From: a virus
Taxonomy: Duplodnaviria > Caudoviricetes
Direction: 5' to 3' (one strand)
IMG/VR virus record: IMGVR_UViG_3300028854_000488
DNA length: 64,000 bases
Below, piece after piece: positions 11,581 through 63,314 of the stretch (its first letter is position 1; the number at the start of each line of letters is the position of its first letter). The notes under the pieces are model-generated. The model had not been told where the DNA came from and did not search any database. It saw only the letters and a program-made list of their open reading frames with translations. The position numbers and the translations under genes are program-made.

Positions 11581-11623
11581 ATTTTTTTTATTTTATATAT
11601 AAAAACAATATGGCTATAATATA

Positions 11624-11654: not shown

Positions 11655-11655
11655 A

Positions 11656-11826: not shown

Positions 11827-11879
11827 ATTTTTATTTAAATTTTTATTTATATATTAACTTTTTATAGAATAATATATCG

Positions 11880-18035: not shown

Positions 18036-18670
18036 ATATTTTTATTTATTTCGTCTAATTTATCTTTTCTTTTATATATTGGATTACACACTAAACATAT
18101 AAGTCCATGTTTTTTTGTGTTCCACATATCATAATAATCGCCATTTTTCTTACATTTTGGACAATATGTTGAACTTTCTTTACCAACTATTTTAAAATCT
18201 AAAGAATAATAATCATTATCAAAAGCATCAAAATCATTTTCATATTTAGTTAAATATTCTATAGTATTCCAGTCATCACTATTAACTTTATAATTTTGTT
18301 GTATTATTCTTAATTCTGATATCGCATCATCTGATAATTTTGTATTATATTCATACAACTCCCAATCTTCGTTATTGCATGTAGAAACTAAATAGCGATC
18401 AGCTACTTTTTTTATATATGTATCATAGTTACAACTTTGAAAGGTTATAGCTTGATTTTCATCTATATTTTTTAATATATTAATATATGAATTATATTCA
18501 GTTATACTATATGCATCATATTCTTTATTTTTCATATCATTATCAATATATTGTTCATATTTTACATTAATCATATATGTAGCAAGATCACGTACACTCT
18601 TAAAACTTTTATCAGAAATTATAAAACTACTAGATGACGAATTACTTACAAATCCACTTCTTATTTTCAT
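18032..18670 (-). CDS. MKIRxGFVSNSSSSSF family protein 2 with C-terminal Zn ribbon
   Basis: MKIRSGFVSNSSSSSF; CPKC...CLVC; ends KRKDKLDEI. Confidence 0.8.
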   Translation of the reverse strand: MKIRSGFVSNSSSSSFIISDKSFKSVRDLATYMINVKYEQYIDNDMKNKEYDAYSITEYNSYINILKNIDENQAITFQSCNYDTYIKKVADRYLVSTCNNEDWELYEYNTKLSDDAISELRIIQQNYKVNSDDWNTIEYLTKYENDFDAFDNDYYSLDFKIVGKESSTYCPKCKKNGDYYDMWNTKKHGLICLVCNPIYKRKDKLDEINKNI

Positions 18671-21792: not shown

Positions 21793-22306
21793 TTAGTTTA
21801 TTAATCTATCAATTCCTATTGCAAATCCAACTCCTCCATCATATTCTCCCCCACCACAAATTTGTTTTGATGAACCTAATTTTTCACAAGTGATTTCAAA
21901 TCCTTTACCGTCTTTATAATAATCAAGTCCTCGTTTAACATCATTATTAATGATATAATTATCAATATTGACAGTGAAATTATTTGTTAATAATTTCATT
22001 GCTAAATGTTGTAAATTTGCTCCTTCAGATAGATAATCATGAGTAGGATTTAATATTTCAACTCCAAATTGTGTAAATTCTCGGAATCTTGCATATTGTG
22101 GTTTTTCACCACGGAAACATCATGTTGTTATTCTCTTCACCAACTTTATTTTTGAATAATTCTTGAAGTTGAATAATAGGTATTTGAATTTCTTGAAAAT
22201 GATATTCATCAATTAATATTGTAATCATAGAATTAATCAAGTTTCTCTTTTCATTACCAACTAAAATTCTGGTTCCTTTATAACAAGTTTCTTTTATTAT
22301 TTTCAT
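21793..22306 (-). pseudogene. hisS: Histidyl-tRNA-synthetase-like catalytic core, frameshifted by an internal deletion
   Basis: Frame A: YKGTR...FQEIQIPII...KVGEENNNMMF. Shifted frame from 22119: CFRGEKPQYARFREFTQFGVE (motif 2)...GGGEYDGGVGFAIGIDRL (motif 3). No anticodon-binding domain. Confidence 0.75.
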
Positions 22307-22749
22307 TTACGATAATTTCTTTTATTATTATATTGTTTTATTTTTTGAGTATCCATTTTTGATTTATTTTTATTGTTGAATACTTTTATTTCTCTTTGAT
22401 ATTGGTTATTAATCTCATCAATTATTTTACAATCATCATATGTATACCAATACATTGTACTATAATTAGATATAGATTTATTATTATCAATTCTTGAATT
22501 TTGAATAAAATCTAAAATTAAATATTCAGAACTATAATATTCTATTTTGTTATCTAAATTTAATATTTTTAATTTCCTTATTAATTGTGTATCAACACTG
22601 AAATTTATAATACCAGTACACACATTATCAATATGTAATCCAAAATATTCTAATTTACTAAATTTAATAATTCTTTTTTTATAACATTTGATAGCATCAT
22701 CATTACATTTTGAGACATCAAAAGTAAAGTATGTAATATTATCTATCAT
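22303..22749 (-). CDS. Hypothetical protein
   Basis: ATGA-coupled ORF; internal IRKLKILNL. Confidence 0.6.
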   Translation of the reverse strand: MIDNITYFTFDVSKCNDDAIKCYKKRIIKFSKLEYFGLHIDNVCTGIINFSVDTQLIRKLKILNLDNKIEYYSSEYLILDFIQNSRIDNNKSISNYSTMYWYTYDDCKIIDEINNQYQREIKVFNNKNKSKMDTQKIKQYNNKRNYRK

Positions 22750-23048
22750 TTTTCTAACTCTTTTTTAGTAATATATTCAATAACTTCTTTTGATTTTTTA
22801 ATTTCAGACATTACAAATAAGTATAATGTATCTTTAATGATAATTTTTTCTCCATTTGAAGAATTATCTAATATTTTTAATAAATTATTAATAGGACCTA
22901 TTTTATTTCTAATATCAGCAAGTTCTTCAAATTGTATTTTTTCAATTTCTTTAAGAAGATCTTGTTTATCATTCCAACTTGATGTTGGTTGTTGATCAGA
23001 ATCAAATTTCCAAAAACTATTTATTAATTTTGATATTTTTTTTATCAT
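22746..23048 (-). CDS. Hypothetical protein
   Basis: ATGA-coupled ORF. Confidence 0.6.
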   Translation of the reverse strand: MIKKISKLINSFWKFDSDQQPTSSWNDKQDLLKEIEKIQFEELADIRNKIGPINNLLKILDNSSNGEKIIIKDTLYLFVMSEIKKSKEVIEYITKKELEK

Positions 23049-23302
23049 ATTGTTTTATTTAATTCTTTTAATTTATTTAACCTTAATAATTTAGTTTTAT
23101 GATATTTAATCTTATTTAAGAATAAATGTTTATCTGAGAATTCTCCTAAATAAATGTCAAAACCTCCATAATATAACTTGAAACTATCATTAACATTTAA
23201 ATATTCAATTTCCATTGCACGATAAGAAGATTTAGTATCATACCAAATATCATCTTCAATATCATATTTAAAATTATTTAATATTAGATCAGTATATTTC
23301 AT
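23045..23302 (-). CDS. Hypothetical protein with RKxKL-like tag
   Basis: Ends LRLNKLKELNKTI. Confidence 0.6.
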   Translation of the reverse strand: MKYTDLILNNFKYDIEDDIWYDTKSSYRAMEIEYLNVNDSFKLYYGGFDIYLGEFSDKHLFLNKIKYHKTKLLRLNKLKELNKTI

Positions 23303-23844: not shown

Positions 23845-24761
<917 letters not shown>

Positions 24762-27558: not shown

Positions 27559-28551
27559 GAAATCATTACAATTCAATACACTTAATCCGTTTTTCCATTC
27601 ATCATTAACACCTTCACAGAAACTACATGGAAAATAATTTCCATCTACATTTACATAAGAAGAGTAAACTGAACTCTCACAAGGCTCAATACATTGATCC
27701 ATTTGATCTTTAAATTCTGTAGTTAAAGATTCATCTGATTCCAAATAAGTGAAGAATTTGCGACTGCTGCATGAGTCAAATCCGAACCTAATTTTTTTTG
27801 ATATTGAATATTTGCACAATTCATTAAATTTTTCTTGTGATAATTGAGAAAAACCAGTTTTTGCATTTCCTTTCTGCTTGAGTGACAAAAAAATAATAGC
27901 GTTCATTTTACTAAGTCTTGGATCATTTTGCATATCATTTATAACTTCATATGCTGTATCAATAGTATTTTCCGAAATCATAAAATGTATATTTATTTGA
28001 TCCATTCCACGGTTTGTCAATTCAGATATTGCGTTATAAGTCAACTCTTTATCATATACGCTAATTGCTACTGCTCCGCAATATTTTGCAAGATTATCAA
28101 AATACTCTGATGCCATTCTTGCTCCATTAATTGTAACGTTAGGAATTACAGAATTTTCTCTACAATATTCAAAAATTTTCCACATATCAGGATTACTATC
28201 AATATCTCCAATTCCTGCTGCTAATTGAGTTATTGATGGAGGTAGTTTAGAAAATACTTTTTTGAAAGTTTCAAAATTCATATACTTGCCCTTAGAATTA
28301 TTAGATTTATAACAAAATTTACAAGGTGTTCCAACTCCATGACATGTTGTACTAATCTCCATGTCTATGATCTCTGGTAATGATAAATCAATATCTCCAT
28401 CATCTTCTTCTGTTTTACCCCATCTTGCGAAGTAACCGTTTTTCTTATTGAAGAAGAAATTATAGTTTTCTGATTTTAATATTTTAGCATCATTAGTATC
28501 TACAATTAGTGCGTCTTCTCCGTTAGAGAGTTTTAATTTAGTTTGTTTCAT
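27469..28551 (-). CDS. Radical SAM protein with SPASM/twitch-like C-terminus
   Basis: CHGVGTPCKFC (CX6CX2C); CES...VNVDGNYFPCSFC...CGRDC. Confidence 0.8.
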   Translation of the reverse strand: MKQTKLKLSNGEDALIVDTNDAKILKSENYNFFFNKKNGYFARWGKTEEDDGDIDLSLPEIIDMEISTTCHGVGTPCKFCYKSNNSKGKYMNFETFKKVFSKLPPSITQLAAGIGDIDSNPDMWKIFEYCRENSVIPNVTINGARMASEYFDNLAKYCGAVAISVYDKELTYNAISELTNRGMDQINIHFMISENTIDTAYEVINDMQNDPRLSKMNAIIFLSLKQKGNAKTGFSQLSQEKFNELCKYSISKKIRFGFDSCSSRKFFTYLESDESLTTEFKDQMDQCIEPCESSVYSSYVNVDGNYFPCSFCEGVNDEWKNGLSVLNCNDFLTDIWNNEKTKNFKNNLLSCGRDCPIYKI

Positions 28552-28822
28552 ATTTTTTTAAATTGTTTAATTTTTGTTTTCTTTCAAATTTCAATGATGT
28601 TTCAAATAATCCTATATAATATATTTGATATGGTTCTTCTTTTAATCCAACACGTATAATTGAATTGTCTACTATTGAATTGACTAATTGATCTACAGTA
28701 TAAATTTCATTAAAATTTAATGTTTTTGGTACACCCATTTCTTCAAATATATTTGTAGGTTGTTTAAGTACAATTTTATCACCAATTTTCAAAGATGTTA
28801 TCATTATTATATCATTTAGCAT
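28538..28822 (-). CDS. KOW-like protein with RKxKL tag
   Basis: LKIGDKIV; ends ERKQKLNNL. Confidence 0.6.
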   Translation of the reverse strand: MLNDIIMITSLKIGDKIVLKQPTNIFEEMGVPKTLNFNEIYTVDQLVNSIVDNSIIRVGLKEEPYQIYYIGLFETSLKFERKQKLNNLKKYETN

Positions 28823-30607: not shown

Positions 30608-31231
30608 ATGAAAATAAAATTTGAAGAATTTATATTAGAATCAAAAAATTATAACCTTTATAAAGGAGTAGGTAATTTAAAACAAATTTTACTTGATGGT
30701 AAAATAAAATTACTAAAAGGTGAATGGGGTTATCAATGGAGTTCAGATATGAGAAGAAATTTAGGAATAAAAGATGAAGTTGGCATATCAGTAACTAGAA
30801 ATTTTTCAACTGCTGTTGGTTATGGTGATGCTGTAATAGAATTTGATACTCAAAAATTGAGTGATAAATATAAAATTATTCCAATAATAGAAAATTTAGA
30901 CTATTATTTGAATTTACCAAAAGAAAAAACTAAAAAATTATCAATATCAAAACAACTTAGATTAAAAGAATTTGGTAAAGAATATTGGAACATCAAAACA
31001 AATAAAGATGCATTCGATTTTGGTATTGCAGAAGAGATAATAGTATCAAATGAAGTTTCAATAAAATATATAAAAAAAGTATATATTATTTATAGTAATA
31101 GAGATATAACAAAAAAAATTGAATTGCTAAAATTGAATAATATTCCTTACGAAATAATATCAAAAGATGATAAATATTTATCTAACGTTAAATATAGAAA
31201 AAATAAGATTAATACTTATTCACAGATGTGA
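30608..31231 (+). CDS. Putative ADP-ribosyltransferase-fold protein with CTS-like N-terminus
   Basis: MKIKFEEFILE; LYKG...ISVTRN...AEEII order resembles the ART catalytic strands. Confidence 0.4.
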   Translation: MKIKFEEFILESKNYNLYKGVGNLKQILLDGKIKLLKGEWGYQWSSDMRRNLGIKDEVGISVTRNFSTAVGYGDAVIEFDTQKLSDKYKIIPIIENLDYYLNLPKEKTKKLSISKQLRLKEFGKEYWNIKTNKDAFDFGIAEEIIVSNEVSIKYIKKVYIIYSNRDITKKIELLKLNNIPYEIISKDDKYLSNVKYRKNKINTYSQM

Positions 31232-31801: not shown

Positions 31802-32272
31802 ATGAGAAAAATTTTACTAGGCATAATAATGCTATTCGCTTTTAGTGTATATTCAAATACTCAAAACATTACAACAAGATTTATTGATAAATATAATGCA
31901 TTAACTATATCATTAAGCAACGAATATAAAATCCCTGCTAGCGTAATTCTTTCAATTTCAATATGGGAAAGTGGTTCTGGAACAAGTAAATTGAGTAGAA
32001 CTAAACATAATTATTTTGGAGTTAAACAAGGAAAACATTATAGAAGTTATGAAAATGATTCTATATCATTTAGGCATTTTTGTGAGTTTACTTCAAAAAG
32101 AAAATATTATTCTAAATTAATAAATAATAATGTTACAGATTATAATATATGGGTACATAACATTCAAAGAGGTGGATATTCGCAAACAAAAAATTGGGGT
32201 AAACATATCGTTGACATGATTAAAATATACAATTTAAATAAAATTGATAATCAATATGTTTTTATTGATTAA
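31802..32272 (+). CDS. Glucosaminidase (GH73/FlgJ-like) muralytic enzyme with signal peptide
   Basis: MRKILLGIIMLFAFSVYS signal; IPASVILS...WESG.G.S.L....NYFGVK...GGYS. Confidence 0.75.
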   Translation: MRKILLGIIMLFAFSVYSNTQNITTRFIDKYNALTISLSNEYKIPASVILSISIWESGSGTSKLSRTKHNYFGVKQGKHYRSYENDSISFRHFCEFTSKRKYYSKLINNNVTDYNIWVHNIQRGGYSQTKNWGKHIVDMIKIYNLNKIDNQYVFID

Positions 32273-32409
32273 TTTGAAAATTATTTAATTTATTGAGTTT
32301 TTCAATTCTATCATCTTTCAATTTTTTTCTTTCTGCTTCTCTATCATATTTATATGATAGTTTTGCGTTTGAAAAACTTGGATCTGCTACTAAATCATAA
32401 GTAAATAGT

Positions 32410-32721
32410 TTATTTAAAATTATTTTCAATTGATTTTAATTTCTTTTTTCTTAAATGCTTAACATATTCATTTGGAAAATTATCATAGTCTAATACAGGT
32501 TTATCAGATGCTTTTTTTATCATATCTAATTGCCATTGTATAGATTCTATTGGATCCTCACATTCACTTTCATATGAAAAAATGTTTATTGAATTTTCTG
32601 TACAAGATTCAGGTATATCACTTTCATCATTGTAATATACTTCATAAACACCAAATTCGACTTCAGAGTCAAAATCTGTTACCATTCTTTTTGCTAAAAT
32701 TCTATAATTCCAATACGACAT
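32410..32721 (-). CDS. Hypothetical protein with RKxKL tag
   Basis: WNYRI...FGVYEVYY; ends LRKKKLKSI. Confidence 0.65.
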   Translation of the reverse strand: MSYWNYRILAKRMVTDFDSEVEFGVYEVYYNDESDIPESCTENSINIFSYESECEDPIESIQWQLDMIKKASDKPVLDYDNFPNEYVKHLRKKKLKSIENNFK

Positions 32722-32787: not shown

Positions 32788-34231
32788 CTATTGTATCTAA
32801 TTTAATTAATTTGTTTGTTTTTATAGCTGATCGTATGTCAAACTTATCAGAATGACAACCATTTTGAAATGGTACTTTTTTTCTCCATAAGAATTCGTCT
32901 GATATAATATTTTCAAATGATTTTCTCAAAATATACTTCAAGTGTTTTCCTTTACCGTTATTTTCATCACGATATTTTGGAGGTATTCTTAAACAAAAAT
33001 TCACAAAATTATAATCAGCAAATGGAGTTCTTGCTTCAATTGTACCTCCATACATCATAGATTTATTTAATGTACTCAGATTTTTATGATTTACATTTTT
33101 AACTAATGATATTCTTCTGTTATGATATTTTGTTTCATCATTCCAGCACCACCTTTTAACATCATCATATGATCCAAATATTTCATCACTAACATCTCCA
33201 CCAAATACTACTTTAAATCCTCTATTTGATATTTCTTTAGCTAATAATATTTGTGCAATAGCAAATGATAATTGAATATAATTTTCACTTTCTATCGCAT
33301 AAATTGTTTCTTGCAATTTTTCTTTCATTACATCAAATGGAATATCAATAATAACTAATTTTATATTATTTTCTTCTGAGAATTTTTTTGCAAAATATAA
33401 ATCATCTTTTAATATTTTTTTTGAATTTGTGGTGCCAGATATATTTATAACAAAACTTGTAATATTTTGTATTCTTTTAGATAATAAATATGTTATTAAT
33501 GTAGAATCTATTCCACCACTTAATATTGTGCATATGGGTACATCTGATACTAATTCATTATCAATAGCGGCATTTAGTAATCTTCTTATATTCGTTGTAT
33601 AATAATTTTCACCTTTGTCAATTTTGTCATAATTAATATTATCAAATGTAAAATATTTTGACATTTTTAATTCATTAGTATCTAAAAAATATTCTAATAC
33701 TGTACCAGGCTGAACATCACAAATATTATCATTGGTATCAAAACATTTTTTTTCACTGGCAAATATCAGTTTACTATCATACTTATAATGAAATGGTAAT
33801 CTTCCAATATAATCCCTACCTAAAACCAATTTATTTTTAATTTTATCCAAGATACAAAAACAAAACATACCGTCTAATGATGACATAAATTTTATTAAAT
33901 CGTCAGAATATTCTATATAAATTAATAATAATAATTCTACATCTGATTTATAATTATTAATATTGTATTTTTTTCTCAAATATGAAAAGTTATCAATAGT
34001 TCTATTAAATAATTCACCGTTAAAAACAATAACATAATTATCATCTTTACTATGAAATGGCTGATTTGAATAATCTGACAAATCAACAATAGATAATCTA
34101 TTATGACCCATAAATATATTTTTATATTCGTATATTTCTTGATAATCTCTTCCTCTGTGCTTAATTTTATCTAATGATATCTGAATATCTTCTTTAGATC
34201 CGAAACCATTTCCACCTACAATTCCACACAT
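32774..34231 (-). CDS. asnB: Asparagine synthase (glutamine-hydrolysing) family amidotransferase
   Basis: MCGI Ntn start, KHRG, GHNRLSIVD, FNGE, LSGGIDS, GGDVSDEIFG, EARTPF. Confidence 0.85.
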   Translation of the reverse strand: MCGIVGGNGFGSKEDIQISLDKIKHRGRDYQEIYEYKNIFMGHNRLSIVDLSDYSNQPFHSKDDNYVIVFNGELFNRTIDNFSYLRKKYNINNYKSDVELLLLIYIEYSDDLIKFMSSLDGMFCFCILDKIKNKLVLGRDYIGRLPFHYKYDSKLIFASEKKCFDTNDNICDVQPGTVLEYFLDTNELKMSKYFTFDNINYDKIDKGENYYTTNIRRLLNAAIDNELVSDVPICTILSGGIDSTLITYLLSKRIQNITSFVINISGTTNSKKILKDDLYFAKKFSEENNIKLVIIDIPFDVMKEKLQETIYAIESENYIQLSFAIAQILLAKEISNRGFKVVFGGDVSDEIFGSYDDVKRWCWNDETKYHNRRISLVKNVNHKNLSTLNKSMMYGGTIEARTPFADYNFVNFCLRIPPKYRDENNGKGKHLKYILRKSFENIISDEFLWRKKVPFQNGCHSDKFDIRSAIKTNKLIKLDTIEKSE

Positions 34232-34398
34232 AAATTTAGTTTGTTTAATTTATTTCTTCTTGTAACATTCTTTATTGCTATATCAATAAGCTTGTTTGTG
34301 ATATCTTTTTTATAATATCTGAAATAATAATCTCGTTTAAGTAATTCTAATTGAGATATACTAGCTGTCATTAATTTATTAAGAATACCATCTTCCAT
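34216..34398 (-). CDS. Small protein with RKxKL-like tag
   Basis: Ends TRRNKLNKLNL. Confidence 0.55.
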   Translation of the reverse strand: MEDGILNKLMTASISQLELLKRDYYFRYYKKDITNKLIDIAIKNVTRRNKLNKLNLCVEL

Positions 34399-36899: not shown

Positions 36900-37142
36900 T
36901 TAACTTATTTCATATTCACTTTTTATTTTTAATAACTTAAGTTTTCTCTGTTCTTGAAGTGTACAGAAATATTCATAGAAATTAGGATAATCTCCTACAA
37001 ATTTAGTTTTATTAAGAGAAAATATTCCAAAATTATACAAATAAACTATATAATCATCATAAAATATAATATAATAATATTCACCTTCAATATAATTATT
37101 ATATGCCTTTTTACAAATATATTTTGTATTTTTATTTAACAT
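36900..37142 (-). CDS. Small protein with RKxKL tag
   Basis: Ends QRKLKLLKIK; TATCTTTG at 37192-37199. Confidence 0.6.
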   Translation of the reverse strand: MLNKNTKYICKKAYNNYIEGEYYYIIFYDDYIVYLYNFGIFSLNKTKFVGDYPNFYEYFCTLQEQRKLKLLKIKSEYEIS

Positions 37143-37268
37143 TATTTATATTTTTAAATTGAAGCATCATTTTCATGATTTTTAATTTTTACAAAGATAA
37201 TGAAATTATTTGATATTACAAAAAAATAATAAATATTTTTATATATAGTAGAAATAAATATTTTAAAT

Positions 37269-46198: not shown

Positions 46199-46546
46199 TT
46201 ACTTTAATTTTTTTTTTGAATTATTAATTTTTTTTAATTTTAATTTTCTATATTCTTTTAGTGATATGAATCTTTTAACATCTAATGAAAATGAACTATT
46301 ACCAAATTCTTCAAATGATAAATTTATATATATGTAATCTAAATTACCAAAAGTTTTATAATAATCTGTTGTAAAATAATCATTATCTGATGAATACCAC
46401 ACTCTTCTGACTGTTAATATATCATATTTTTTAATATTAATATTATCTTTTTCAAATAATTTATTATTTTTTAAAAGTTTCAAATAATCATCAAATGAAA
46501 ATATATTATAATCTACAATTACTACTTTATCTCCTGATTTAAACAC
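46199..46546 (-). CDS. KOW-like protein with RKxKL tag
   Basis: MFKSGDKVV; RFISLKEYRKLKLKKI. Confidence 0.65.
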   Translation of the reverse strand: MFKSGDKVVIVDYNIFSFDDYLKLLKNNKLFEKDNINIKKYDILTVRRVWYSSDNDYFTTDYYKTFGNLDYIYINLSFEEFGNSSFSLDVKRFISLKEYRKLKLKKINNSKKKLK

Positions 46547-46770
46547 AACTTTTCAAGTTTTAATTTTCTATATTCTTTTAGTGATATGAATCTGTCTGCT
46601 CTGAAATTTCCTCCTATATTAATTAATTTTATATATTGATTAAGCATATAATAATGACCATAACTTTCTATTTTATACGTAGAATATTTTTTCAAATTCT
46701 TATATGGTTCAAATGTTTTAGTATCATTACTATCATCAATACAAACTATTATATTTCCTTCTTTAAACAT
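46522..46770 (-). CDS. KOW-like protein with RKxKL tag
   Basis: MFKEGNIIVC; RFISLKEYRKLKLEKL. Confidence 0.65.
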   Translation of the reverse strand: MFKEGNIIVCIDDSNDTKTFEPYKNLKKYSTYKIESYGHYYMLNQYIKLINIGGNFRADRFISLKEYRKLKLEKLCLNQEIK

Positions 46771-46867
46771 AATTAATATATTAATTACTTTTTATTATTA
46801 TTCAAATGTTATGCCAAACCAAAAATAATGTCAATTTGTCATATAATATGACACAATGACATCATAA

Positions 46868-47050
46868 TTAATAATACCAGCAATTTAAGCATTCATCAAT
46901 ACTATCATCAATATGAATCAATGATTGTATATCTTGTTTTCCTTCTGGAAAATATACATTATTAGAAATTTTTTCTCTTAAATCATCAATATGTTTTAAA
47001 ATATCTTCTCTAATTGTATGCTCATAAATTTTTATTTCTTCGTTTTCCAT
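46868..47050 (-). CDS. Hypothetical protein
   Basis: ATG 47050 follows the promoter at 47069-47100. Confidence 0.55.
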   Translation of the reverse strand: MENEEIKIYEHTIREDILKHIDDLREKISNNVYFPEGKQDIQSLIHIDDSIDECLNCWYY

Positions 47051-47068
47051 ATTTTTATAATTTTGATG

Positions 47069-47100
47069 CAAAGATAATACATTTTTAGATATTTACCAAA
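47069..47100 (-). promoter_or_regulatory. Bacteroidota-type promoter
   Basis: TTTG-N20-TATCTTTG. Confidence 0.75.
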
Positions 47101-47110
47101 TTTTATAATG

Positions 47111-47147
47111 AAAAAAGGATGAAAAATAATTATTTTTCATCCTTTTT
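47111..47147. terminator. Palindromic terminator after rtcB
   Basis: AAAAAGGATGAAAAATAATTATTTTTCATCCTTTTT. Confidence 0.75.
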
Positions 47148-47151
47148 GTTA

Positions 47152-48546
47152 TTAAAACTTTTTCATTTTTTGATAAGAAATAGCATTTCTTTCATTGCTA
47201 CGTTGTTTATCTTTCTTTTTTTGTTCTTTTCTATCTTTCCATGAAGTACCTTCAGATTTATCTTTGATGTTTAAGATTGGTTTAATTTTATCAAGAATTA
47301 ATGCAGTAGGTTCAATAGCTTTTTCAATCATTTCTGAGTTTTTGTAAGCAAATGGAGATTCATCAATTGTACTTTTACATACAGATGTTGAATAAACATT
47401 TTTCATTACTCTCTGAAAATCTTTTAAATCAATTGACTCTTTTGCTTTTGATCTTGACATCAATCTACCACTACCATGCGGAGCTGAATTATTCCAGTCT
47501 TCATTCGATTTCCCTTCACATATAAGTATTCCATCTCTCATATTGAATGGTATAATCATTTTTTCTCCAAGATAAGATGATATTGCTCCTTTTCTTATGA
47601 TAAAGTCTTTAAAGTCGACATAGTTATGTATTGAATTTATTTCTTCATCAAATTTTTTGATATTTAATGCTTTTTTTATCAAAGATAACATAGTTTTTCT
47701 ATTCCATAGAGCATATTGTTGTGCAAAAATCATATCAAATAGATATCCAATAAGATTTTCACCGTCTAAATATTCTTTATTAATATTAAGACTATATCTT
47801 GTTCTTAAATCTTTTATTTTTTTATCAATATCAGATTTTGGATAAGTGTTCATAACAATATCATCTAATTCCATATTATATTCTTTGGTAGCAACAAATA
47901 CTTTACCTCTTGCTACATTAGTCCAATATTCAGCAATTTTCAAACCAAAATTTCTTGAGCCAGAGTGAACTGTTATCCAATAATCATTAGTTTTATCTGA
48001 TTTGCCAAGTTCAATAAAGTGATTGCCTCCTCCTAATGTACCAATTGATTGAAAAAATTTACCTTCATCCATATTAATATCTTTCAATTTAGCTGTTAAC
48101 CATTTTTCATTATATGTTGGTGACTCATAAGAAGTTCCAAATTTCTCATTAAATTTTGCAGCAAATTTATCAGCAATTACTTGTACATCATCAAAAGGAA
48201 TATTTTTGAATACTATATCTTCATGCATATCAAATCCCATAGGAACATTTTCACGTATCAGATTATCAATTTTCTCTAAATCTAATGAAGTTTTACCTGA
48301 AAATCTTGCAGACAACATGCCACATCCGATATCTGTTCCGATCGTACTTGGTTTGATGTATTTTCCTAATTCCATGGAAAATCCAATGCAGATATCCGAT
48401 CCAACATGTGCATCTGGCATTATTCTAATTTTCAATCCATTAGATGTTTCTGAGTTTATAACATTGTATATTTGAGTAAATACTCCTTCTTCAACTTCAT
48501 CTATAAATATTTTAGCATCTGTATATTTACCTTTTAATTCTATCAT
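47152..48546 (-). CDS. rtcB: RtcB family RNA ligase
   Basis: IMPDAHVG, IGTDIGCG, GTLGGGNHFIE, VHSGSR, HNY, RKGA, SAPHGSGR, DESPFAYK. Confidence 0.95.
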   Translation of the reverse strand: MIELKGKYTDAKIFIDEVEEGVFTQIYNVINSETSNGLKIRIMPDAHVGSDICIGFSMELGKYIKPSTIGTDIGCGMLSARFSGKTSLDLEKIDNLIRENVPMGFDMHEDIVFKNIPFDDVQVIADKFAAKFNEKFGTSYESPTYNEKWLTAKLKDINMDEGKFFQSIGTLGGGNHFIELGKSDKTNDYWITVHSGSRNFGLKIAEYWTNVARGKVFVATKEYNMELDDIVMNTYPKSDIDKKIKDLRTRYSLNINKEYLDGENLIGYLFDMIFAQQYALWNRKTMLSLIKKALNIKKFDEEINSIHNYVDFKDFIIRKGAISSYLGEKMIIPFNMRDGILICEGKSNEDWNNSAPHGSGRLMSRSKAKESIDLKDFQRVMKNVYSTSVCKSTIDESPFAYKNSEMIEKAIEPTALILDKIKPILNIKDKSEGTSWKDRKEQKKKDKQRSNERNAISYQKMKKF

Positions 48547-48602
48547 AATTTTACTTTTTTATTTATATTTAATTTGCAAATGTACAACAATTATTTTAAT
48601 TA

Positions 48603-50960
48603 TTAAAATGTTTCACTAATTTCTTTCAATTTATTTTTTCTTTCAATTCTTTTACTAATAAAAAATGTTTTAATAATTATATAGCAATCAACGTTAACAT
48701 CAGTCATTATTAATATAGAACTATTTTTTTCATCTTCATAAATGTTTAATATTCTATATTCTTTACCTACTGTTATTAATAAATCATTTGTATTATCATT
48801 TTTTATACAAATAGCTAATTCTCCAACTTTAAATTTGTTGTTTGATTTCATTTATTTTCATTTTTCTAAGTTTTTGTTTACTAATGAAATAAGATTCAGG
48901 TACAAAAAAATTATAATTATTATTACATATCATATACATATTACTTGAATTACAATTACTTAATTGAAGTACTTTATATTCGTTATTTATTGTCAATAAT
49001 AGTTCAGTAAAAGTATCATTTTTTATACAAATAACTAATTCACCAACTTTAAATTTGTTTTTTGATTTCATTTATTTTCATTTTTCTAAGTTCTTTTTTA
49101 CTAGCAAAACAGGATTTAGGTACAAAATAATTAATATTTATATCGCATGTTACGCATATATTATCAGTATTAAATATTCCCATTGCTGATATTTTATATT
49201 CTTTATTTATTGTCAATATATTTGAATATTCAAAGGTTTTTATACAAACAATGGTATCATTTGTTTTGAACATATTTATTTAGTTTTTCAAGTTTAAATT
49301 TTCTTAAATCTTTTAAATTCTTTTTATTTATAAAATATGAATCAGGTAACGGCATTATAAGATTATTATCGCATATTATATTTAAATATCCGCTATTTTT
49401 ATATATCCATAATATTTTATATTCTTTATCTACTGTTATTAATTGATTGCTATTTTTTATACAAATAGCATAATCATCAATTTCAAATTTATTATTTTTA
49501 ACTAATTTCATTTAGTTTATTTAATTTTAATTTTCTATATCCTTTTACACTTATAAATCTCGTCATATCATAAACTGAATATCCATATTTATTTTCAATT
49601 TCATCTAATATATATGAAGTGCTTTCATATCGACTACTAGTATCATCAAGTGATTCATAACAATTTCCATCATCTCCCCAATATGATAGAATTTTTTTAA
49701 TTGTGTAAGTTTTATTTATTTCTAATGGATTTATTTTATGAAATTCTAACATATATGATACGAAATCATAAAAAACATAATCTTGTTTAGGTTCATTATC
49801 TATACAAACAACTACATCACCTATTTTGTACATATTTATTTAGTTTTTTTAATTTTAATTTTCTGATTGATTTAATATCAGTAAAAAAACTTATTGGTAC
49901 AAATTGGCTGAATTTTTTAGTGTCACTTTTTACTACAATTTTATTTTGAAAATACCAATCAATATATTCAATTTTATATTTTTTACCTATTGTTAAATGT
50001 TGATCCCAATAATCATTATCATCAATTTTTACACAAGTGACAATTTGGCCAATTTTAAAATCATAATTTGTCAATTCATTTTCTTTCATTTAGTTTATTT
50101 AGTTTAACTTTTCTTAAAATTAAAATTAATTGATTTTCGGGTAAAGATAATAATCTAAATCTCATATTTGTATTCACTATATGATTATAATGAATAGTTA
50201 CAACATAATTATCATTATTACAATCATATCTTATTTCACGTATATAAAAATCACTGTCTGGTATTTGTTCATCATAATATTTTTTCAGTTCTCTTAATAA
50301 CAATAAATATGATTTGGTATCTAAGTTTGAAACTATATTGGTTGGCATAATTTATTTAGTTTATTTAGTTTATTTATTCTGGATATATTATTTAATTTGC
50401 ATTCAGATAAATAATGATGTTCAGTAGTATAAAAATATCCTGATAATCTATATTTTTTTCTCATTTTAACAGAAATAACATACTCAGAATTATTATGATA
50501 ACTTTTTCTAAATCCTGATATATCATATACAGTATATTTAAAATTATCATTTAGTATATTTGAATAATATATTTTTAATTCTTTGAGTAAATTTTCATAT
50601 GATTGCGTATTTTCTTTATATTTATACATTATTAATTTTTTCTAATTTTTGTTTTCTTAAAAAAATATTATGTTCTTTATCATCATTAAATTGATATAAT
50701 ATATCATTAACTACTTCATATTTAGAGTATGTAATAACAAATGGCAAATAATCATCAAATTTAATATAGAAAGAATATTCACTTGACATAAAAATTGAAA
50801 AACTTAAATTAAATTTCTCAGTCATTGCAATTATTGCGCCAGATCTAATTAATTCATTTTTTTCATTCAATTGAATATATTTATCCATAGAATAACAGTT
50901 TTTAGGCATACCCCATAACCCGTTATCTTGTTTTTTAGAATTTATTTTTATTATTTGCAT
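48603..50960 (-). CDS. Tandem array of nine small ORFs (74-112 aa), mostly KOW-like, all with the RKxKLxxL tag
   Basis: ORFs 48603-48851, 48829-49071, 49049-49273, 49257-49511, 49498-49833, 49817-50089, 50076-50348, 50333-50629, 50622-50960; overlapping stop/start. Confidence 0.7.
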
Positions 50961-50968
50961 AATACTGA

Positions 50969-51472
50969 TTATAAATTGCCTAATTTACTTACTTCGTCAT
51001 TTAATTTAGTTCCAAGTGATTCTAAATTTATCATTTGCTTTTTTATTTGTTCTATACTATTATTAAATTCTTCTTTAATATCTTCTTCAGATATATCTTC
51101 GCTTGTCATTAGTTCATCAAATTTTTTAAATAATTCTTGACTTTCTATATTATTTGATACAAATTCGAATGAATCATAATCTATATTTTGATCAATTTGA
51201 TATTCATTTTCAGTTATTTTTTTATCTATGGTAAGTATATCATTTTTCCTTTTATCTGAAAATTCTTTAAAGTTAAAAACATATTCTTCATTTTTAAGAG
51301 GACACCATTCTGCAGTGTAAAAACTAACATTATCATTAAAATTAATAAAATATTCATCATTTTTTAAAAATTTTGATAGTATACATTCACTTATTGGTTC
51401 ATCTCCTGATTCATAATAATATTCAGTATTACAAAATGGACAATTTCCACAGCAATTTACGGTTTTTTTCAT
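50969..51472 (-). CDS. Cys-rich N-terminus plus coiled-coil protein
   Basis: CCGNCPFC...C...WCPL. Confidence 0.6.
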   Translation of the reverse strand: MKKTVNCCGNCPFCNTEYYYESGDEPISECILSKFLKNDEYFINFNDNVSFYTAEWCPLKNEEYVFNFKEFSDKRKNDILTIDKKITENEYQIDQNIDYDSFEFVSNNIESQELFKKFDELMTSEDISEEDIKEEFNNSIEQIKKQMINLESLGTKLNDEVSKLGNL

Positions 51473-51635
51473 TTTAAATTATTTATTTTTTCGATTTTTT
51501 CTTTTCTTTTCTTATTGAGTTCTTTTCTTTTAATTTCTCTCATAAATTCGTCATCAAATATAATATGTTTAGGATATAAGTTTGCATAATCCATATTTAC
51601 TATCTGATATTCAAATTTATAATTTTTCTTCATAA

Positions 51636-51854
51636 TTATTTATATTGTTTATTTCTATTATGCTTCCAAGTTTTATACATTCTTATTTGATACATCAATA
51701 ATTGTTTCTTTTTATATTTTTTTGTTATTCTTGAATATTCTGGATAAAAGTGTAAACCTTCGTCCCAATACGGATCTGTATCATCTTTTGTTAAGATGTT
51801 ATAAGTTTTGTTGTCAGTTACAACTTCTGATTTTTTACATTTGAATTTTTTCAT
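51636..51854 (-). CDS. Small basic hypothetical protein
   Basis: Ends YRTWKHNR-like (MYKTWKHNRNKQYK). Confidence 0.55.
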   Translation of the reverse strand: MKKFKCKKSEVVTDNKTYNILTKDDTDPYWDEGLHFYPEYSRITKKYKKKQLLMYQIRMYKTWKHNRNKQYK

Positions 51855-52079
51855 TTTTATTAGATTATTTTTTAATAATCTAATATTTATCTAATTTTTT
51901 CTTCATTTTTGATATATTATGCTAATTTATTTTTTATATATATGTTTTTTAAATAAATGTTTTTTAAAAATATAAAACTTTTTTTATTTATAATATATAA
52001 GTGATATAATTTTAAATGAACTATACTCAACTAGATTTTTACAAAGATAACAAAAATATTTAATAATACAAATTTTTAT

Positions 52080-52370
52080 ATGATAAATAATAAAGTTGAA
52101 AGACTTTTAGCTGGAGAAACTATTATTAGTAAAGAACCAGGAAACTCAATGCTTCCAATAATCAAATCAAAACAGCCTGTAACATTAGAACCTGCAACTT
52201 GGGAATCAGTTGAAGTGGGAGATATTGTATATGCTAAATATCACGGAAAATTATATACACACTTAGTAAAATCAAAAAACTCAGAACAAGGTGTTCTTAT
52301 TGGTAACAATAAAGGACATATAAATGGATGGACCAAAAATGTTTATGGTAAAGTAATAAACATTTTATAA
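52080..52370 (+). CDS. S24/S26-type peptidase-like protein
   Basis: PGNSMLPII (Ser), VGDIV, THLVK, GNN. Confidence 0.6.
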   Translation: MINNKVERLLAGETIISKEPGNSMLPIIKSKQPVTLEPATWESVEVGDIVYAKYHGKLYTHLVKSKNSEQGVLIGNNKGHINGWTKNVYGKVINIL

Positions 52371-52386
52371 AAAATAAATAAATATA

Positions 52387-52578
52387 ATGATGAGAGCAAT
52401 ATGTAAGCTAGATTACGGACAGTTTGAAAATAACAAAACCTACAATTATTCATGCACTAACGACAATAAATTCCACGTTGATGGTCAATATGGAAAAACA
52501 GAATTTAATAAAAGACAATTTAATGCATTATTTACATTAGAAAGAACAAAAAACCCAAACAAATCATTTAATTTTTAA
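52387..52578 (+). CDS. Hypothetical protein
   Basis: 63-aa ORF in operon. Confidence 0.5.
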   Translation: MMRAICKLDYGQFENNKTYNYSCTNDNKFHVDGQYGKTEFNKRQFNALFTLERTKNPNKSFNF

Positions 52579-52588
52579 TATCTAATTT

Positions 52589-52831
52589 ATGAAATTTAAT
52601 ATCGGAGATAATGTTATATTCATAAATAATTCTAAAACTATTTATGCTTGGGATCTTGTTGATTATAAAATCTATAAAATTGAGAATTTTTCAATTCGTT
52701 CGTCTGAATTTATGTATTCGGTGAGTGATAATGATAGTAATACAACTCAAAGTTGGTATTTTGAATGTGATTTTATTTCATTGCAAGAATATAGAAAAAT
52801 TAAATTAAACGAAATAAAACAATTATCATGA
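52589..52831 (+). CDS. KOW-like protein with RKxKL tag
   Basis: MKFNIGDNV; YRKIKLNEI. Confidence 0.65.
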   Translation: MKFNIGDNVIFINNSKTIYAWDLVDYKIYKIENFSIRSSEFMYSVSDNDSNTTQSWYFECDFISLQEYRKIKLNEIKQLS

Positions 52832-53139
52832 GAAGATTTAGTAAAAAATTAAAAAATATATTTAATTCTATTAATCCATATTACGAAATTAATAAAGAAT
52901 CCGATAGATTTCAAGAACTCAGAATAAAATTGAATGAAAATCGATTAGATTATATAATAAAAGAGTTTGAAAGAATAGAAAATATGAGTGATGAAGAAAG
53001 AATAGAATATAAAAAAAATTTATTGAAAGAAGAAGCAAATAATATAATTGATAAATTAGAATCAAATTCAGAATTATATAAAGAATATAATAATATTATG
53101 AGGAGAAAGAAAATTAAAAAATTAGAAAGTAATGAGTAA
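52828..53139 (+). CDS. Coiled-coil protein with RKxKL-like tag
   Basis: Ends RRKKIKKL. Confidence 0.6.
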   Translation: MRRFSKKLKNIFNSINPYYEINKESDRFQELRIKLNENRLDYIIKEFERIENMSDEERIEYKKNLLKEEANNIIDKLESNSELYKEYNNIMRRKKIKKLESNE

Positions 53140-53704
53140 TTTAGTAGAACATGCAAAAAGAGAATTTCTTAAATTAGGTTATAAACCAATTGATAAATGC
53201 GAAAATGATCCAAATAAATGGATACAAGAAAATATATTAGAATTACTTGAAATATTTTCTAAACAAGGTCATTCTGGATTTTCAGCATCATATGTACTTA
53301 GTTATTTTAATAAATTGGCTAATTTTGAACCAATTGCTCCGATTATGTGTACCGATGATGAATGGAATGATATAGCAGATGAATGTTATCAAAATAATCG
53401 TTGTTCTGCAGTATTTAAAGAAAAAATTGATAGTAATCCATATTATTTGGATGCTATTATTTTTGTTGATGAAAATAATTCATCTTTTACTGGTAGAGCA
53501 TATAATAATAGTCATGATAGTATAACAAGTAGGCAAACAATTAAATTACCATTTACACCTAAACGTTTTTATGTTGATGTAGTTTATTATAATGATGAAA
53601 ATCATATTAAAGATGAATCCCAATTAAAAGAAGTTTGGAAATATTATGAGCATCAAGAAACTAAGTCATATATTAGATTACAAAAATTAAAATCAATAGA
53701 ATGA
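53132..53704 (+). CDS. Conserved phage hypothetical protein with RKxKL-like tag
   Basis: HAKREF...QGHSGFSA...FEPIAPI; ends IRLQKLKSI. Confidence 0.65.
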   Translation: MSNLVEHAKREFLKLGYKPIDKCENDPNKWIQENILELLEIFSKQGHSGFSASYVLSYFNKLANFEPIAPIMCTDDEWNDIADECYQNNRCSAVFKEKIDSNPYYLDAIIFVDENNSSFTGRAYNNSHDSITSRQTIKLPFTPKRFYVDVVYYNDENHIKDESQLKEVWKYYEHQETKSYIRLQKLKSIE

Positions 53705-53952
53705 AAATTGGAGATGTTCAAGTTTATTTAGGAGATACTAATATGTATTATACTAAAAATAAAAAATATTATGTATATAGGATAAATTCTCATTTTATAC
53801 CTGGAACTATTTGTGGACATATAATGAATGATATAGGAGATAGTGTTTATTTTCGTGATGATGATATCGACAGGAATTGGATAGATTTAAAAAAATATAG
53901 AAAAGAAAAAATTAATAATTTAAATAATATTTATGAAAAAAACTTTGAATGA
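53701..53952 (+). CDS. KOW-like protein with RKxKL tag
   Basis: MKIGD; YRKEKINNL. Confidence 0.6.
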   Translation: MKIGDVQVYLGDTNMYYTKNKKYYVYRINSHFIPGTICGHIMNDIGDSVYFRDDDIDRNWIDLKKYRKEKINNLNNIYEKNFE

Positions 53953-54103
53953 TTTTGATTATAGTTTTAAATTTCCTGATAATGATTTTAATAATTTATC
54001 GTTAGAAATGCTACAAAAATGGAAAACATTAATCAATCAAGATAAAATAAAATTAAAAAAAGAAGAAAGAATTGCTAAATTAAATGAAATAAATTCTAAA
54101 TAA
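53933..54103 (+). CDS. 56-aa protein with RKxKL-like tag (not in track)
   Basis: MKKTLNDFDYSF...ERIAKLNEINSK. Confidence 0.5.
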   Translation: MKKTLNDFDYSFKFPDNDFNNLSLEMLQKWKTLINQDKIKLKKEERIAKLNEINSK

Positions 54104-54473: not shown

Positions 54474-54848
54474 TTACTTTGAATCGTTTCCTATAGTATT
54501 AGTTTTTGTAGTATTCGTATCAGTAGTATTTTCTCCTGTATTATCATTAGTAATATTACTAGTATTTGTATCAGTAGTGTTAATTATTTTTTTACCTTTT
54601 TCTATATAATTAATAATATATCCAGCAACCGCAAATTCTATTCCAGCCCATATTGCGAAATCACCTGCTGATATTGTACTTAATGAGTGTAATAAAAAAT
54701 AAATCATACCCCATTGACCAATTATAAACGCAATCGAAGATTCAATCCTTTTCTTAGAAAAAAATGATGGTTGATTTGAATAAATTTTTAATATTTCCAT
54801 GACAAATCTTTTTATATTAGTCCATCCAAAAAAATATGTTTTATTCAT
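54474..54848 (-). CDS. Two-TM membrane protein (holin-like size)
   Basis: Two hydrophobic helices; Thr/Asn-rich tail. Confidence 0.55.
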   Translation of the reverse strand: MNKTYFFGWTNIKRFVMEILKIYSNQPSFFSKKRIESSIAFIIGQWGMIYFLLHSLSTISAGDFAIWAGIEFAVAGYIINYIEKGKKIINTTDTNTSNITNDNTGENTTDTNTTKTNTIGNDSK

Positions 54849-54859: not shown

Positions 54860-55381
54860 TTATTTTTTACCTTGTCTTTTTAATATGGCTTGCTGCAATG
54901 CAGTTGGTAGTTTCTTTTGGGCTGCAGAAAGACCAGTTTTTTCTTCTTTTTCATCATCGTCTTTAGAAAACTTTTTTATTGCCCCTTTTTTATCTTTACA
55001 TTCTTTTTCATCATCTTTACATTTTTTTACGACTTTACCTTTTTTCTCATATTTATCATCGTCATCATCGTCATCATCTTTGATGTTTTTGAATTCTTTA
55101 AGAATATCTTTACCTACATTTGTGCGTTTAGTTGGACCAGAACTTTTAAAAAATTCTTTATCTGTAAAATTATCAAGATCACAAAGATTATTCAATTTAC
55201 CAAATACGTGTTCTTCTTTACTTTTTGGTTTTTCTGTAATACATTTACCACCAGATTCTTCTTTATTTTCAAAAATATCTTTAGCAACTTCAGTTCTTTT
55301 AGTCACTTTTGCATTTTTGAAAATTTCTTTTTCTGTAAAATCATCAATACTAAGTAGATTATTTAATTTATTATCTTTCAT
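54860..55381 (-). CDS. Highly charged probable virion-internal protein
   Basis: Duplicated LNNL..(I/L)D.FT.KE...K.TKRT.V.KDI unit; ends AQKKLPTALQQAILKRQGKK. Confidence 0.6.
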   Translation of the reverse strand: MKDNKLNNLLSIDDFTEKEIFKNAKVTKRTEVAKDIFENKEESGGKCITEKPKSKEEHVFGKLNNLCDLDNFTDKEFFKSSGPTKRTNVGKDILKEFKNIKDDDDDDDDKYEKKGKVVKKCKDDEKECKDKKGAIKKFSKDDDEKEEKTGLSAAQKKLPTALQQAILKRQGKK

Positions 55382-55771: not shown

Positions 55772-56038
55772 TTATTTTTTATTTGTTTTTTCTTCACCGC
55801 AAATATCAATTTTAATTTTTTCTAAATCTTTAGTTGCACCTTTTCCTTTTGTCCAATATTTGTTTACATTATCAAAAAATTCACTTTTCTTTTCATCTGA
55901 TAATTTAGCAGGAGATTTAACATCATAACAATCAAGTATGAATTTAAAATATTCTCTATATTCTATTTGTAAATCTGATAATTTTTCATTTAATGATAAA
56001 CTTTCATTATATTGTTTGAAATTTTTAATTTTATTCAT
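55772..56038 (-). CDS. Protein with CTS-like N-terminus
   Basis: MNKIKNFKQYNE. Confidence 0.6.
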   Translation of the reverse strand: MNKIKNFKQYNESLSLNEKLSDLQIEYREYFKFILDCYDVKSPAKLSDEKKSEFFDNVNKYWTKGKGATKDLEKIKIDICGEEKTNKK

Positions 56039-56798: not shown

Positions 56799-57074
56799 AA
56801 AAATTTATTATTTTTTGTTATATATTAATAATTAAGTATATATTAATATTTACATATTGAATTTATTTGATTTATTTTTAATTTTTTGAATTTCTATTGC
56901 TTCTTTCGTAGCTAATATTAATTCATCTTCTGCTCCAGTAAAAATTTCACCTTCCCTTTTTAATCCGTTTTTTGGTTCAGATCCCATATATCTGGTAAAC
57001 ATAATAAGATTATTAGGTACATTATCATACTTAACATCATAATAGCATATAGTTTCTAATTTCGATGAAAAACA

Positions 57075-62816: not shown

Positions 62817-63314
62817 TTATTTTTTCTTTGATAGTAAAGATGTTATATCATTAATAAATTTCTCAGAATTTTTTGGATTCATATTTTCAATTATAGTAAA
62901 ATTTTGATTCCCTTTAATTTTTATTCCTTCTGTAATTTTTCTTAATTCAGGTTTTGTTGAATAATATTTTAATAAAGTATTGACGAATTCATTAATATTC
63001 ATTTTTAATTTTTCATTATATTTAACAATATGTAATTGATTATCTTTTTTTCTAATAAAGTAATCAGTATCTGAATATTTATTTTTTATAGTTTCTAATA
63101 TATCAGTTATATGTCCGCTATTAAATTTTATAATTTTTTCCTCTAATATTTCAATACTCAACATAGAGTCATCTTTAGGAGCTAGTAAAACTTCTTCTTT
63201 TATAGGTTTAATAACCTTTTCAATAGTTTCATCTACTGCATTATTTGATGAAATATTATCAGATTCTATTTTTGTATCAATTATATTAAAATCTGTATAT
63301 TTTTTAATAGGCAT
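62817..63314 (-). CDS. Hypothetical late protein
   Basis: MPIKKYTDF; TTAATATATA upstream. Confidence 0.6.
   Translation of the reverse strand: MPIKKYTDFNIIDTKIESDNISSNNAVDETIEKVIKPIKEEVLLAPKDDSMLSIEILEEKIIKFNSGHITDILETIKNKYSDTDYFIRKKDNQLHIVKYNEKLKMNINEFVNTLLKYYSTKPELRKITEGIKIKGNQNFTIIENMNPKNSEKFINDITSLLSKKK

Follow-up and report, generated by a model that had tools for sequence, protein, structure and literature searches.

The encapsulation peptides of bacterial microcompartments (BMCs; PduP, PduD and EutC) and the cargo-loading peptides of encapsulins are short terminal helices or peptides that bring unrelated cargo to one partner. Bacteriophage T4 uses an N-terminal capsid-targeting sequence (CTS) of about 10 residues, which is found on late head proteins (IPI-III and Alt) and is cut off by the prohead protease. 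Clp tethers and degrons, such as the XB tail of SspB and the C-terminal motif of MuA, are short C-terminal peptides that deliver diverse proteins to a single AAA+ machine. Furthermore, the contact helix of MinE and the N-terminal peptides of ParB bind the MinD and ParA ATPases, and MinD and FtsA carry membrane-targeting helices. Here we describe a C-terminal tag, R-K-x-K-[LI]-x-x-[LI], that is carried by about one in five open reading frames (ORFs) in 64,000 nt of the viral record IMGVR_UViG_3300028854_000488 (hereafter the window, to which coordinates refer unless stated), which stems from a huge uncultured phage of Bacteroidota. We consider it probable, with some reserve, that this R-x-x-K-L/I helix is a docking handle for one common partner. 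Literature searches returned no published description of the tag.

A simple gene call of the window yields 119 ORFs (86% coding) at a GC content of 23%, and the leaders are A-rich and lack Shine-Dalgarno (SD) sequences. The window encodes DnaK, RtcB, a GMP-reductase-like enzyme, asparagine synthase, a radical-SAM/SPASM enzyme, TnpB, ankyrin proteins and a Tad3-type Thoeris inhibitor. The closest deposited phage records are uncultured 'Mahaphage' genomes of 634-735 kb, the predicted hosts of which are Bacteroidetes (PMC7162821). The window was compared with two syntenic metagenomic relatives, L001 and L004, taken from contigs of 100 kb and 531 kb, respectively, with the complete Mahaphage genomes LR745206 (634 kb, 29% GC) and LR756501 (735 kb, 32% GC), and with other Mahaphages as 20-40-kb samples.

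Scored as R-[KLIR]-x-K-[LI]-x-x-[LIY], with positions counted from the arginine (R0), the tag is present in 26 of the 119 ORFs and always ends 1-9 residues before the stop codon. Its extended consensus is (F-I-S)-L-K-x-[YLI]-R-K-x-K-L-[NK]-[KE]-[IL]-N. The first-pass annotation of the window had listed about 25 small proteins with a common C-terminal tag, and the list proved sound: all 15 peptides quoted for positions 46199-54103 are present in real ORFs, as are the tags of nine other ORFs (starting at 8099, 9872, 18032, 23045, 28538, 30608, 32410, 34216 and 36900), and two tagged ORFs can be added (51469-51633, KRKEKIEKI; 52828-53139, MRRKKIKKL). The enrichment is also real, as shuffling the last 25 residues of every ORF gave a mean of 0.15 tagged genes and a maximum of 3 in 2000 trials. 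Per position, the tag is 64 times as frequent in the C-terminal 20 residues as in the protein interior, and a single one of 934 non-gene stop-to-stop frames ends in it. That frame (32262-32435, minus strand) comprises 57 codons just downstream of the tagged ORF 32410-32721, has the tag-like ending ...RIEKLNKLNN and may be an uncalled small tagged gene. In addition, the window contains four internal copies of the motif against 0.44 expected, a number reached in none of 500 shuffles. All four are on the minus strand: KRKLKLAFL (12325-12348; residue 75 of the 206-aa ORF 11950-12570), IRKLKLQII (17479-17502; residue 123 of the 173-aa ORF 17347-17868), IRKLKILNL (22555-22578; residue 58 of the 148-aa ORF 22303-22749) and IRKLKLYKL (24361-24384; residue 39 of the 217-aa ORF 23845-24498).

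Selection maintains the tag as protein and not as DNA, since it occurs in the coding frame only, follows ordinary codon usage and keeps its core residues through synonymous and conservative changes. A degenerate DNA pattern of the tag has 22 matches in the coding frame, one in another frame and none in intergenic or antisense DNA of the window. The Leu/Ile codons at the two aliphatic positions (TTA, CTT, CTA, TTG, ATA, ATT and ATC) are as mixed as genome-wide, and R0 is encoded by all six arginine codons (AGA, AGG, CGT, CGA, CGG and CGC) among the tags of LR745206. In 15 orthologue pairs between the window and L001 or L004, R0 and the aliphatic residue at position 4 are always kept, K3 and the aliphatic residue at position 7 in 14 pairs each. 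These core residues persist through TTA/CTT/CTA/CTC, AGA/CGA and Leu/Ile changes, and positions 1, 2, 5 and 6 vary. Conservation at the DNA level only, named by the first-pass annotation as one outcome that would undo its proposal, is not borne out, as the variation tracks amino-acid classes. The tagged cargo itself is fast-evolving, with 35-69% identity to orthologues versus 82-96% for untagged neighbours.

AT-richness does not produce the tag, because 128 of the 961 genes of LR745206 are tagged (13.3%) as opposed to 3 of the 1048 genes of LR756501 (p = 7e-39), and the 40-kb sample of the even more AT-rich LR756500 (24% GC) contains no tagged gene among 78; an equally large sample of LR756511 has none among 79. 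The possibility that AT composition explains the frequency of the tag is thereby answered. Of the two complete genomes, the untagged LR756501 is closer to the window phage in shared proteins than is LR745206, which is tagged, and the tag is therefore patchily distributed among relatives. It is restricted to certain huge-phage lineages. Within LR745206 it is a mark of small proteins, carried by 26% of those of 60-100 aa and by 1 of the 210 of at least 250 aa (0/110 between 250 and 400 aa, 1/100 above 400 aa). Position 1 is Asp, Glu or Asn in 98 of the 128 LR745206 tags and mostly so in LR756502, so that basic charge, a property that the first-pass annotation had attributed to the tag, does not define it. 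An unrelated tag, DPYGEE[DN]W, is present in LR756501 on 41-44 proteins, with all synonymous codons in use. Examples lie at 500330-503434 and 552409-556034 of the LR756501.1 record, the motif is found near some N-termini as well, and one carrier (record positions 11314-11850) is a stand-alone prohead-protease (S77)-like paralogue.

The tagged proteins of the window are of diverse kinds. As first proposed, many begin with FKxGDxVxC: by alignment, 12 of the 26 belong to this SH3-like family, and the other 14 have no similarity to it. Of these 14, one is Tad3-like, one belongs to a MKIRSGFVSNSS-headed family in which it is the sole C-terminally tagged of six paralogues, and the rest have no Pfam match; Pfam and PHROGs searches of the tagged proteins gave no match except Tad3. 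A search of public metagenomes with a profile of the FKxGDxVxC family retrieved 2134 clusters at 50% identity, and 139 of the top 150 are tagged. No match was obtained when a tagged SH3-like protein was compared with cultured-phage records by tblastn, and an ESM Atlas search returned only unnamed viral clusters. Large proteins (P0132 and P0141) contain tandem repeats of the SH3-like barrel that lack the helix, and small genes that combine SH3 and tag are present only in tagged genomes. The ORF at 53132-53704 (plus strand, 190 aa) matches Pfam PF25185 (E 1.4e-35), PDB entry 9b7d (Tad3; E 8.6e-24) and, by Foldseek, the same fold (E 1.2e-15, template-modelling (TM) score 0.72), and by sequence and predicted fold it qualifies as a homologue of the Tad3-type Thoeris inhibitors. 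Tad3 is an experimentally demonstrated inhibitor of ThsB (PMC13728456). Among 120 homologues, 85 consist of the core, a variable linker (HQETPSY, KPESLSDK, NPIIEE) and the tag, which persists in them down to about 50% identity; distant homologues without the tag end at the core (...EVFEYY). The presence of the same motif on the SH3-like family, a Tad3-type inhibitor and orphan proteins supports the view that the tag is portable.

AlphaFold2 models built on deep alignments place the tag in a helix in both proteins that were modelled, at residues 65-79 of the SH3-like protein encoded at 52589-52831 (model m9556d9962657) and at residues 178-189 of the Tad3-like protein, with predicted local distance difference test (pLDDT) values above 90 in both. 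The SH3-like model as a whole (pLDDT 92) comprises a beta-barrel of five strands followed by the C-terminal helix; it has no Pfam match, and its best Foldseek matches are weak (MRG15 chromo barrel and 53BP1 Tudor; E 0.016-0.05, TM about 0.6). On a helical wheel, the hydrophobic residue at -1, R0, K3, the Leu/Ile at positions 4 and 7 and a hydrophobic residue at 8 or 11 fall on one face, where the invariant Arg and Lys are set within the hydrophobic stripe. This predicted face looks like a groove-plugging helix and would fit a membrane helix or a homo-oligomer poorly. A complex prediction of the SH3-like protein with the Tad3-like tail scored 0.00, which is not evidence either way.

We propose that the motif core is [hydrophobic]-R-x-x-K-[L/I]-x-x-[L/I], in this clade R-K-x-K-L-x-K-L-N, and that this helix has been appended to the C-termini, and occasionally to the interiors, of many unrelated accessory proteins of less than 250 aa. 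The cargo would be expressed mostly from host-type, and hence early, promoters and would include the Tad3-type anti-Thoeris inhibitor and the large chromo-barrel/SH3-like family. One common partner would receive the conserved face of the helix in a hydrophobic groove that also contains acidic residues, providing many early proteins with a shared address for localisation, tethering or timed handling by one hub. Such a hub might lie inside the infected cell and might be a Clp-type unfoldase or protease to which early proteins would be tethered for turnover. Internal copies above chance suggest that the helix is read side-on rather than as a free C-terminal degron, and the tag does not behave as a free-carboxylate degron, as it is followed by 1-9 arbitrary residues dictated by the frame of the next gene. 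The portable helix that, according to the first-pass annotation, docks diverse early proteins on a common partner stands as far as portability (Tad3 linkers), helicity (AlphaFold2), protein-level conservation (codons) and early expression (promoters) are concerned; a single reader and its action are what we infer.

Several points weigh against a docking function. No partner was found among the candidates encoded in the window by presence/absence and co-occurrence tests, and the co-occurrence of ClpP described below is a lead only, as it rests on two related genomes versus one and on host-like genes. In the SH3-like family the helix may be part of the fold, as in the chromo barrel; both models place it confidently, and its conservation in this family could thus be intramolecular. 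Furthermore, the tight position of the tag before the next start codon (19 of 22 cases) is unexpected for a pure docking helix.

Candidate readers were compared between tagged (LR745206 and LR756502) and untagged (LR756501, LR756500 and LR756511) genomes. The phage DnaK (44324-46195), which is encoded directly downstream of a tagged gene and has syntenic counterparts in L001 and L004, does not distinguish tagged from untagged genomes, being present in both. An S24-like peptidase (52080-52370) was rejected as it is present too in LR756501 and Bacillus phage G. This plus-strand gene, the first of the plus-strand tagged array, encodes a stand-alone S24 (LexA/UmuD-like) peptidase domain of 96 aa with the motif GNSMLP and is unusually conserved (61-69% identity across Mahaphages; gp89 in Bacillus phage G). 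LR745206 lacks the ankyrin proteins, and the SH3 proteins that have multiple repeats and no tag (P0132) belong to a phage that is unrelated, untagged and of 38% GC. Within INPHARED, a protein with two transmembrane segments (54474-54848) is confined to the two tagged genomes; its family, which numbers more than 500 clusters, is, however, also found beside holin and lysozyme genes in contigs that are tag-free over 20 kb, and the protein was discarded as well. ClpP is encoded by two strong copies each in the tagged LR745206 (LR745206.1, 123556-124221 and 75119-75859) and LR756502 (LR756502.1, 58622-59143 and 112104-112634) and by none in the untagged LR756501, and all three genomes encode a 700-aa Clp-type (AAA_2) ATPase. 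One of the LR745206 ClpP genes lies 5 nt upstream of a tagged gene. The phage ClpP genes are 75-80% identical to bacterial ClpP, and their close IMG/VR relatives are found only in the Asp-variant clade.

The junction with the following gene invites another explanation, namely that the A-rich sequence is selected as an RNA or DNA signal, either an SD-less initiation region or a homology patch for cassettes, and that the peptide is a by-product. We regard this as improbable. Its geometric basis, recognized in the first-pass annotation, is real: 18 of 22 same-strand tagged genes in the window overlap their successor versus 10 of 67 untagged genes (p = 2e-8), as do 66/104 versus 208/585 in LR745206 (p = 1e-7), the end of the tag falls between 8 nt beyond and 13 nt before the following ATG (-8 to +13) in the 19 cases mentioned above, and the residues that follow it are the N-terminus of the next gene in another frame (e.g. 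...NKYVQNR overlaps MYKIGD). The A-rich leaders without SD sequences are equally in its favor. Conservation, however, follows the genetic code: shuffling the same residues abolishes the motif, variation respects amino-acid classes and not nucleotides, the tags of LR745206 are rich in Asp and Glu and hence less A-rich, and the tag is kept in the 85 Tad3 homologues at identities as low as about 50%. Seven tagged genes, moreover, have no adjacent downstream start, four facing a convergent gene and three being followed by gaps of 25-56 nt, so that tags do occur in genes without a downstream neighbour. Given the codon evidence, these seven genes and the four internal tags, a leader role is at most a by-product. 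As the codons of the helix are A-rich and nothing after it is constrained, the start of the next gene could have shifted up against the tag, whose DNA would then also serve as an SD-less leader as a secondary consequence. The related suggestion of a recombination junction fared similarly: at the DNA level, paralogues are best conserved where the tag adjoins the next start (19-37 nt), and the arrays of the window and L001 differ in copy number, both of which fit unequal crossing-over and do not prove it. Such junction recombination is also invoked by the view, unlikely in our judgement, that the tag has no common reader and is the C-terminal capping helix of the chromo-barrel-like fold, spread to neighbouring genes and kept for the stabilization of small proteins, end protection or self-association. 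That nearly half of the tagged proteins (12 of 26) form one family with a model like a chromo barrel or Tudor domain with a C-terminal helix, that both modelled helices have high pLDDT and that the small SH3 genes with tag are confined to tagged genomes would agree with this view. It fits poorly with the conservation of the same residues on unrelated folds and after variable linkers and with the existence of SH3-like barrels without the helix, and, from the helical wheel, a hydrophobic face that holds an invariant Arg and Lys would be ill-suited to self-packing or homo-oligomers.

The timing of expression bears on a further alternative, in which the helix binds the procapsid interior (coat, scaffold or portal), so that small anti-defence and takeover proteins enter the capsid and are delivered along with the DNA on injection. 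Loading of this kind would have a parallel in the T4 CTS or in scaffolding proteins with their C-terminal helices, and we consider it quite unlikely for the R-K tag. The confinement of the tag to small proteins in LR745206 is compatible with it, an anti-Thoeris inhibitor would profit from pre-delivery, the DPYGEE-W tag of LR756501 is found on a prohead-protease-like paralogue, and one tagged gene lies within the head module of LR745206. Promoter context, judged by direct motif positions, points elsewhere. Bacteroidota-type promoters (TTTG-N17-21-TAnnTTTG) number 17 in the window against 5.9 expected, and motif matches on the minus strand head the tagged array from 51854 to 48603 (52042-52072) and lie upstream of the genes from 47050 to 46199 and on to dnaK (47069-47100); the tagged ORF 36900-37142 has its own (37192-37222). 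In 21 window genes the ATG is preceded, at a distance of 22-33 nt, by a second box, T[AT]ATATATA, which resembles a phage-specific, T4-late-like promoter. This box precedes 7 of 15 proteins with a T4-CTS-like head versus 1 of 26 tagged genes, and only one protein (30608-31231) has both tag and head. The head (M-K-x-I-K-x-F-x-x-Y...N-E) starts proteins at, for example, 37269, 39078, 55772-56038, 62817-63314 and 17074. Around the terminase and prohead protease of LR745206, tags are sparse. The promoter classes, the separate CTS-like heads and this depletion make capsid loading a less likely function, and more than 100 different cargo species per phage would have no known precedent. The host-type promoter context supports the assignment of the tagged proteins to a putative early class, and we rank an intracellular hub above capsid loading because a separate T4-like N-terminal head is present on other genes behind phage-type promoters.

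On the minus strand lie two tagged genes for SH3-like proteins: a small SH3/chromo-barrel-like protein of 115 aa with a GTG start (46199-46546; tag YRKLKLKKI, 46226-46249), 3 nt upstream of the phage dnaK, and an 82-aa protein (46522-46770; YRKLKLEKL, 46546-46569) with a 25-nt overlap with the next gene. The rtcB gene of the window (47152-48546) is intact, and its counterpart in L001 (L001:2727-5215) is interrupted by a LAGLIDADG-type ORF. At a distance of 56 nt from rtcB follows a run of SH3-like genes encoding proteins of 82 aa (48603-48851; ERKNKLKEI, 48618-48641), 80 aa (48829-49071; LRKMKINEI, 48844-48867), 74 aa (49049-49273; LRKMKINEI, 49064-49087; a tandem duplicate of 48829-49071), 84 aa (49257-49511; LRKFKLEKL, 49281-49304), 111 aa (49498-49833; YRKLKLNKL, 49513-49536) and 90 aa (49817-50089; IRKLKLKKL, 49841-49864). 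The other tagged proteins of the minus-strand array are orphans: a 90-aa protein that is not SH3-like (50076-50348; LRKVKLNKL, 50091-50114), its weak paralogue of 98 aa (50333-50629; SRINKLNKL, 50357-50380), a 112-aa protein (50622-50960; LRKQKLEKI, 50634-50657) and a small helical protein of 54 aa (51469-51633; KRKEKIEKI, 51484-51507). The plus-strand array encodes the modelled SH3-like protein of 80 aa (52589-52831; YRKIKLNEI, 52793-52816), a helical orphan of 103 aa (52828-53139; MRRKKIKKL, 53101-53124), the Tad3 homologue (tag IRLQKLKSI, 53675-53698, after its variable linker), another SH3-like protein of 83 aa (53701-53952; YRKEKINNL, 53899-53922) and a small orphan of 56 aa (53933-54103; ERIAKLNEI, 54068-54091).

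Further tagged genes are dispersed over the window. Two are on the plus strand, a 120-aa orphan (8099-8461; LRKDKINNI, 8423-8446) with a gap of 25 nt to the next gene and the 207-aa protein with the T4-CTS-like N-terminus (30608-31231), which has a weak tag (YRKNKINTY, 31196-31219) and a convergent neighbour. The others are on the minus strand. An SH3-like protein of 89 aa (9872-10141; IRKEKLKKL, 9881-9904) has no downstream gene, as its neighbour is convergent, and a terminator-like hairpin lies over its stop codon; a second one of 80 aa (36900-37142; QRKLKLLKI, 36924-36947) likewise has no adjacent downstream gene. The tagged MKIRSGFVSNSS-headed protein comprises 212 aa (18032-18670; KRKDKLDEI, 18047-18070). 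The remaining orphans are of 85 aa (23045-23302; LRLNKLKEL, 23060-23083), 94 aa (28538-28822; ERKQKLNNL, 28559-28582; 14-nt overlap with the radical-SAM/SPASM gene), 103 aa (32410-32721; LRKKKLKSI, 32428-32451; no called same-strand downstream gene) and 60 aa (34216-34398; TRRNKLNKL, 34237-34260; 16-nt overlap with the asparagine synthase gene).

A second C-terminal ending, ...K-[FY]-N-[ILM]-stop, was observed in five neighbouring L001 proteins (L001:13972-17257), one L004 protein and one or two window proteins (56850-57002), never together with the R-K tag. The minus-strand ORF 54860-55381 encodes a Lys/Asp/Glu-rich protein of 173 aa in which LNNL..D.F T[ED]KE.F...TKRT.V.KDI is repeated twice internally. 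Its conserved end, GLSAAQKKLPxxLQxAILKRQGKK, is present too in L001, L004 and LR745206. Two small minus-strand ORFs (21793-21999 and 22106-22306) match parts of one 211-aa ORF of LR745206 at 55-67% identity and possibly represent a split or decayed gene; the ...GGVGFAIGIDRL ending resembles motif 3 of class-II aminoacyl-tRNA synthetases and HisZ.

More tentatively, and with doubt prevailing, the tag might be one instance of a proteome-wide addressing system of Mahaphages, in which each lineage marks 4-20% of its proteins with its own C-terminal peptide (R-x-x-K-L-x-x-L here, DPYGEE-W in LR756501) that is read by a co-evolving phage hub. The marked proteins would chiefly be small early counter-defence and takeover proteins, which the hub would concentrate, time or dispose of, separately from the T4-like capsid-targeting head that the genome appears to reserve for late proteins. 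If so, this would constitute a sorting layer not known in bacterial viruses, and if one peptide addresses about 100 unrelated proteins, its reader would expose a new organising principle of infection by the largest phages. As a one-step handle, it would then group hundreds of orphan early genes as one functional cohort, of which at least one member is a Tad3-type immune inhibitor, and the tag would offer a portable label for protein targeting in Bacteroidota.

Compared with the known systems, the phage tag recalls BMC and encapsulin peptides in being a predicted terminal amphipathic helix that follows a poorly conserved linker and is portable between unrelated carriers. Its motif differs, however, and it is found on 13-22% of genes as opposed to a handful of enzymes; neither BMC shell (PF00936) nor encapsulin (PF04454) proteins were detected in five Mahaphage genomes, two of them tagged, in searches to which control genomes responded. 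Like the T4 CTS, it is a phage-wide address peptide on unrelated small proteins, some of them anti-defence, but it is C-terminal (26 ORFs) or internal (four copies) and is carried by host-promoter-driven genes. With Clp tethers and degrons it shares a short basic/hydrophobic C-terminal peptide, and the tagged LR745206 and LR756502 encode two ClpP copies and a Clp-type ATPase; in contrast to these peptides, the phage tag is predicted to be helical, is followed by 1-9 residues, can be internal and has another sequence, and the ClpP correlation comprises three genomes. The helices of MinE, ParB, MinD and FtsA offer a resemblance only, that of a short terminal docking helix with basic residues beside i/i+3 aliphatics, and the invariant Arg and Lys of the tag and the acidic position 1 in relatives misfit a generic membrane helix; no ParA/MinD-type partner was found, no search aimed at one having been made. 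The DPYGEE-W tag of LR756501, finally, is acidic-aromatic and differs in sequence and predicted structure from the R-K helix, but it presents the same arrangement, in which dozens to hundreds of small accessory proteins of one genome end in one lineage-specific peptide.

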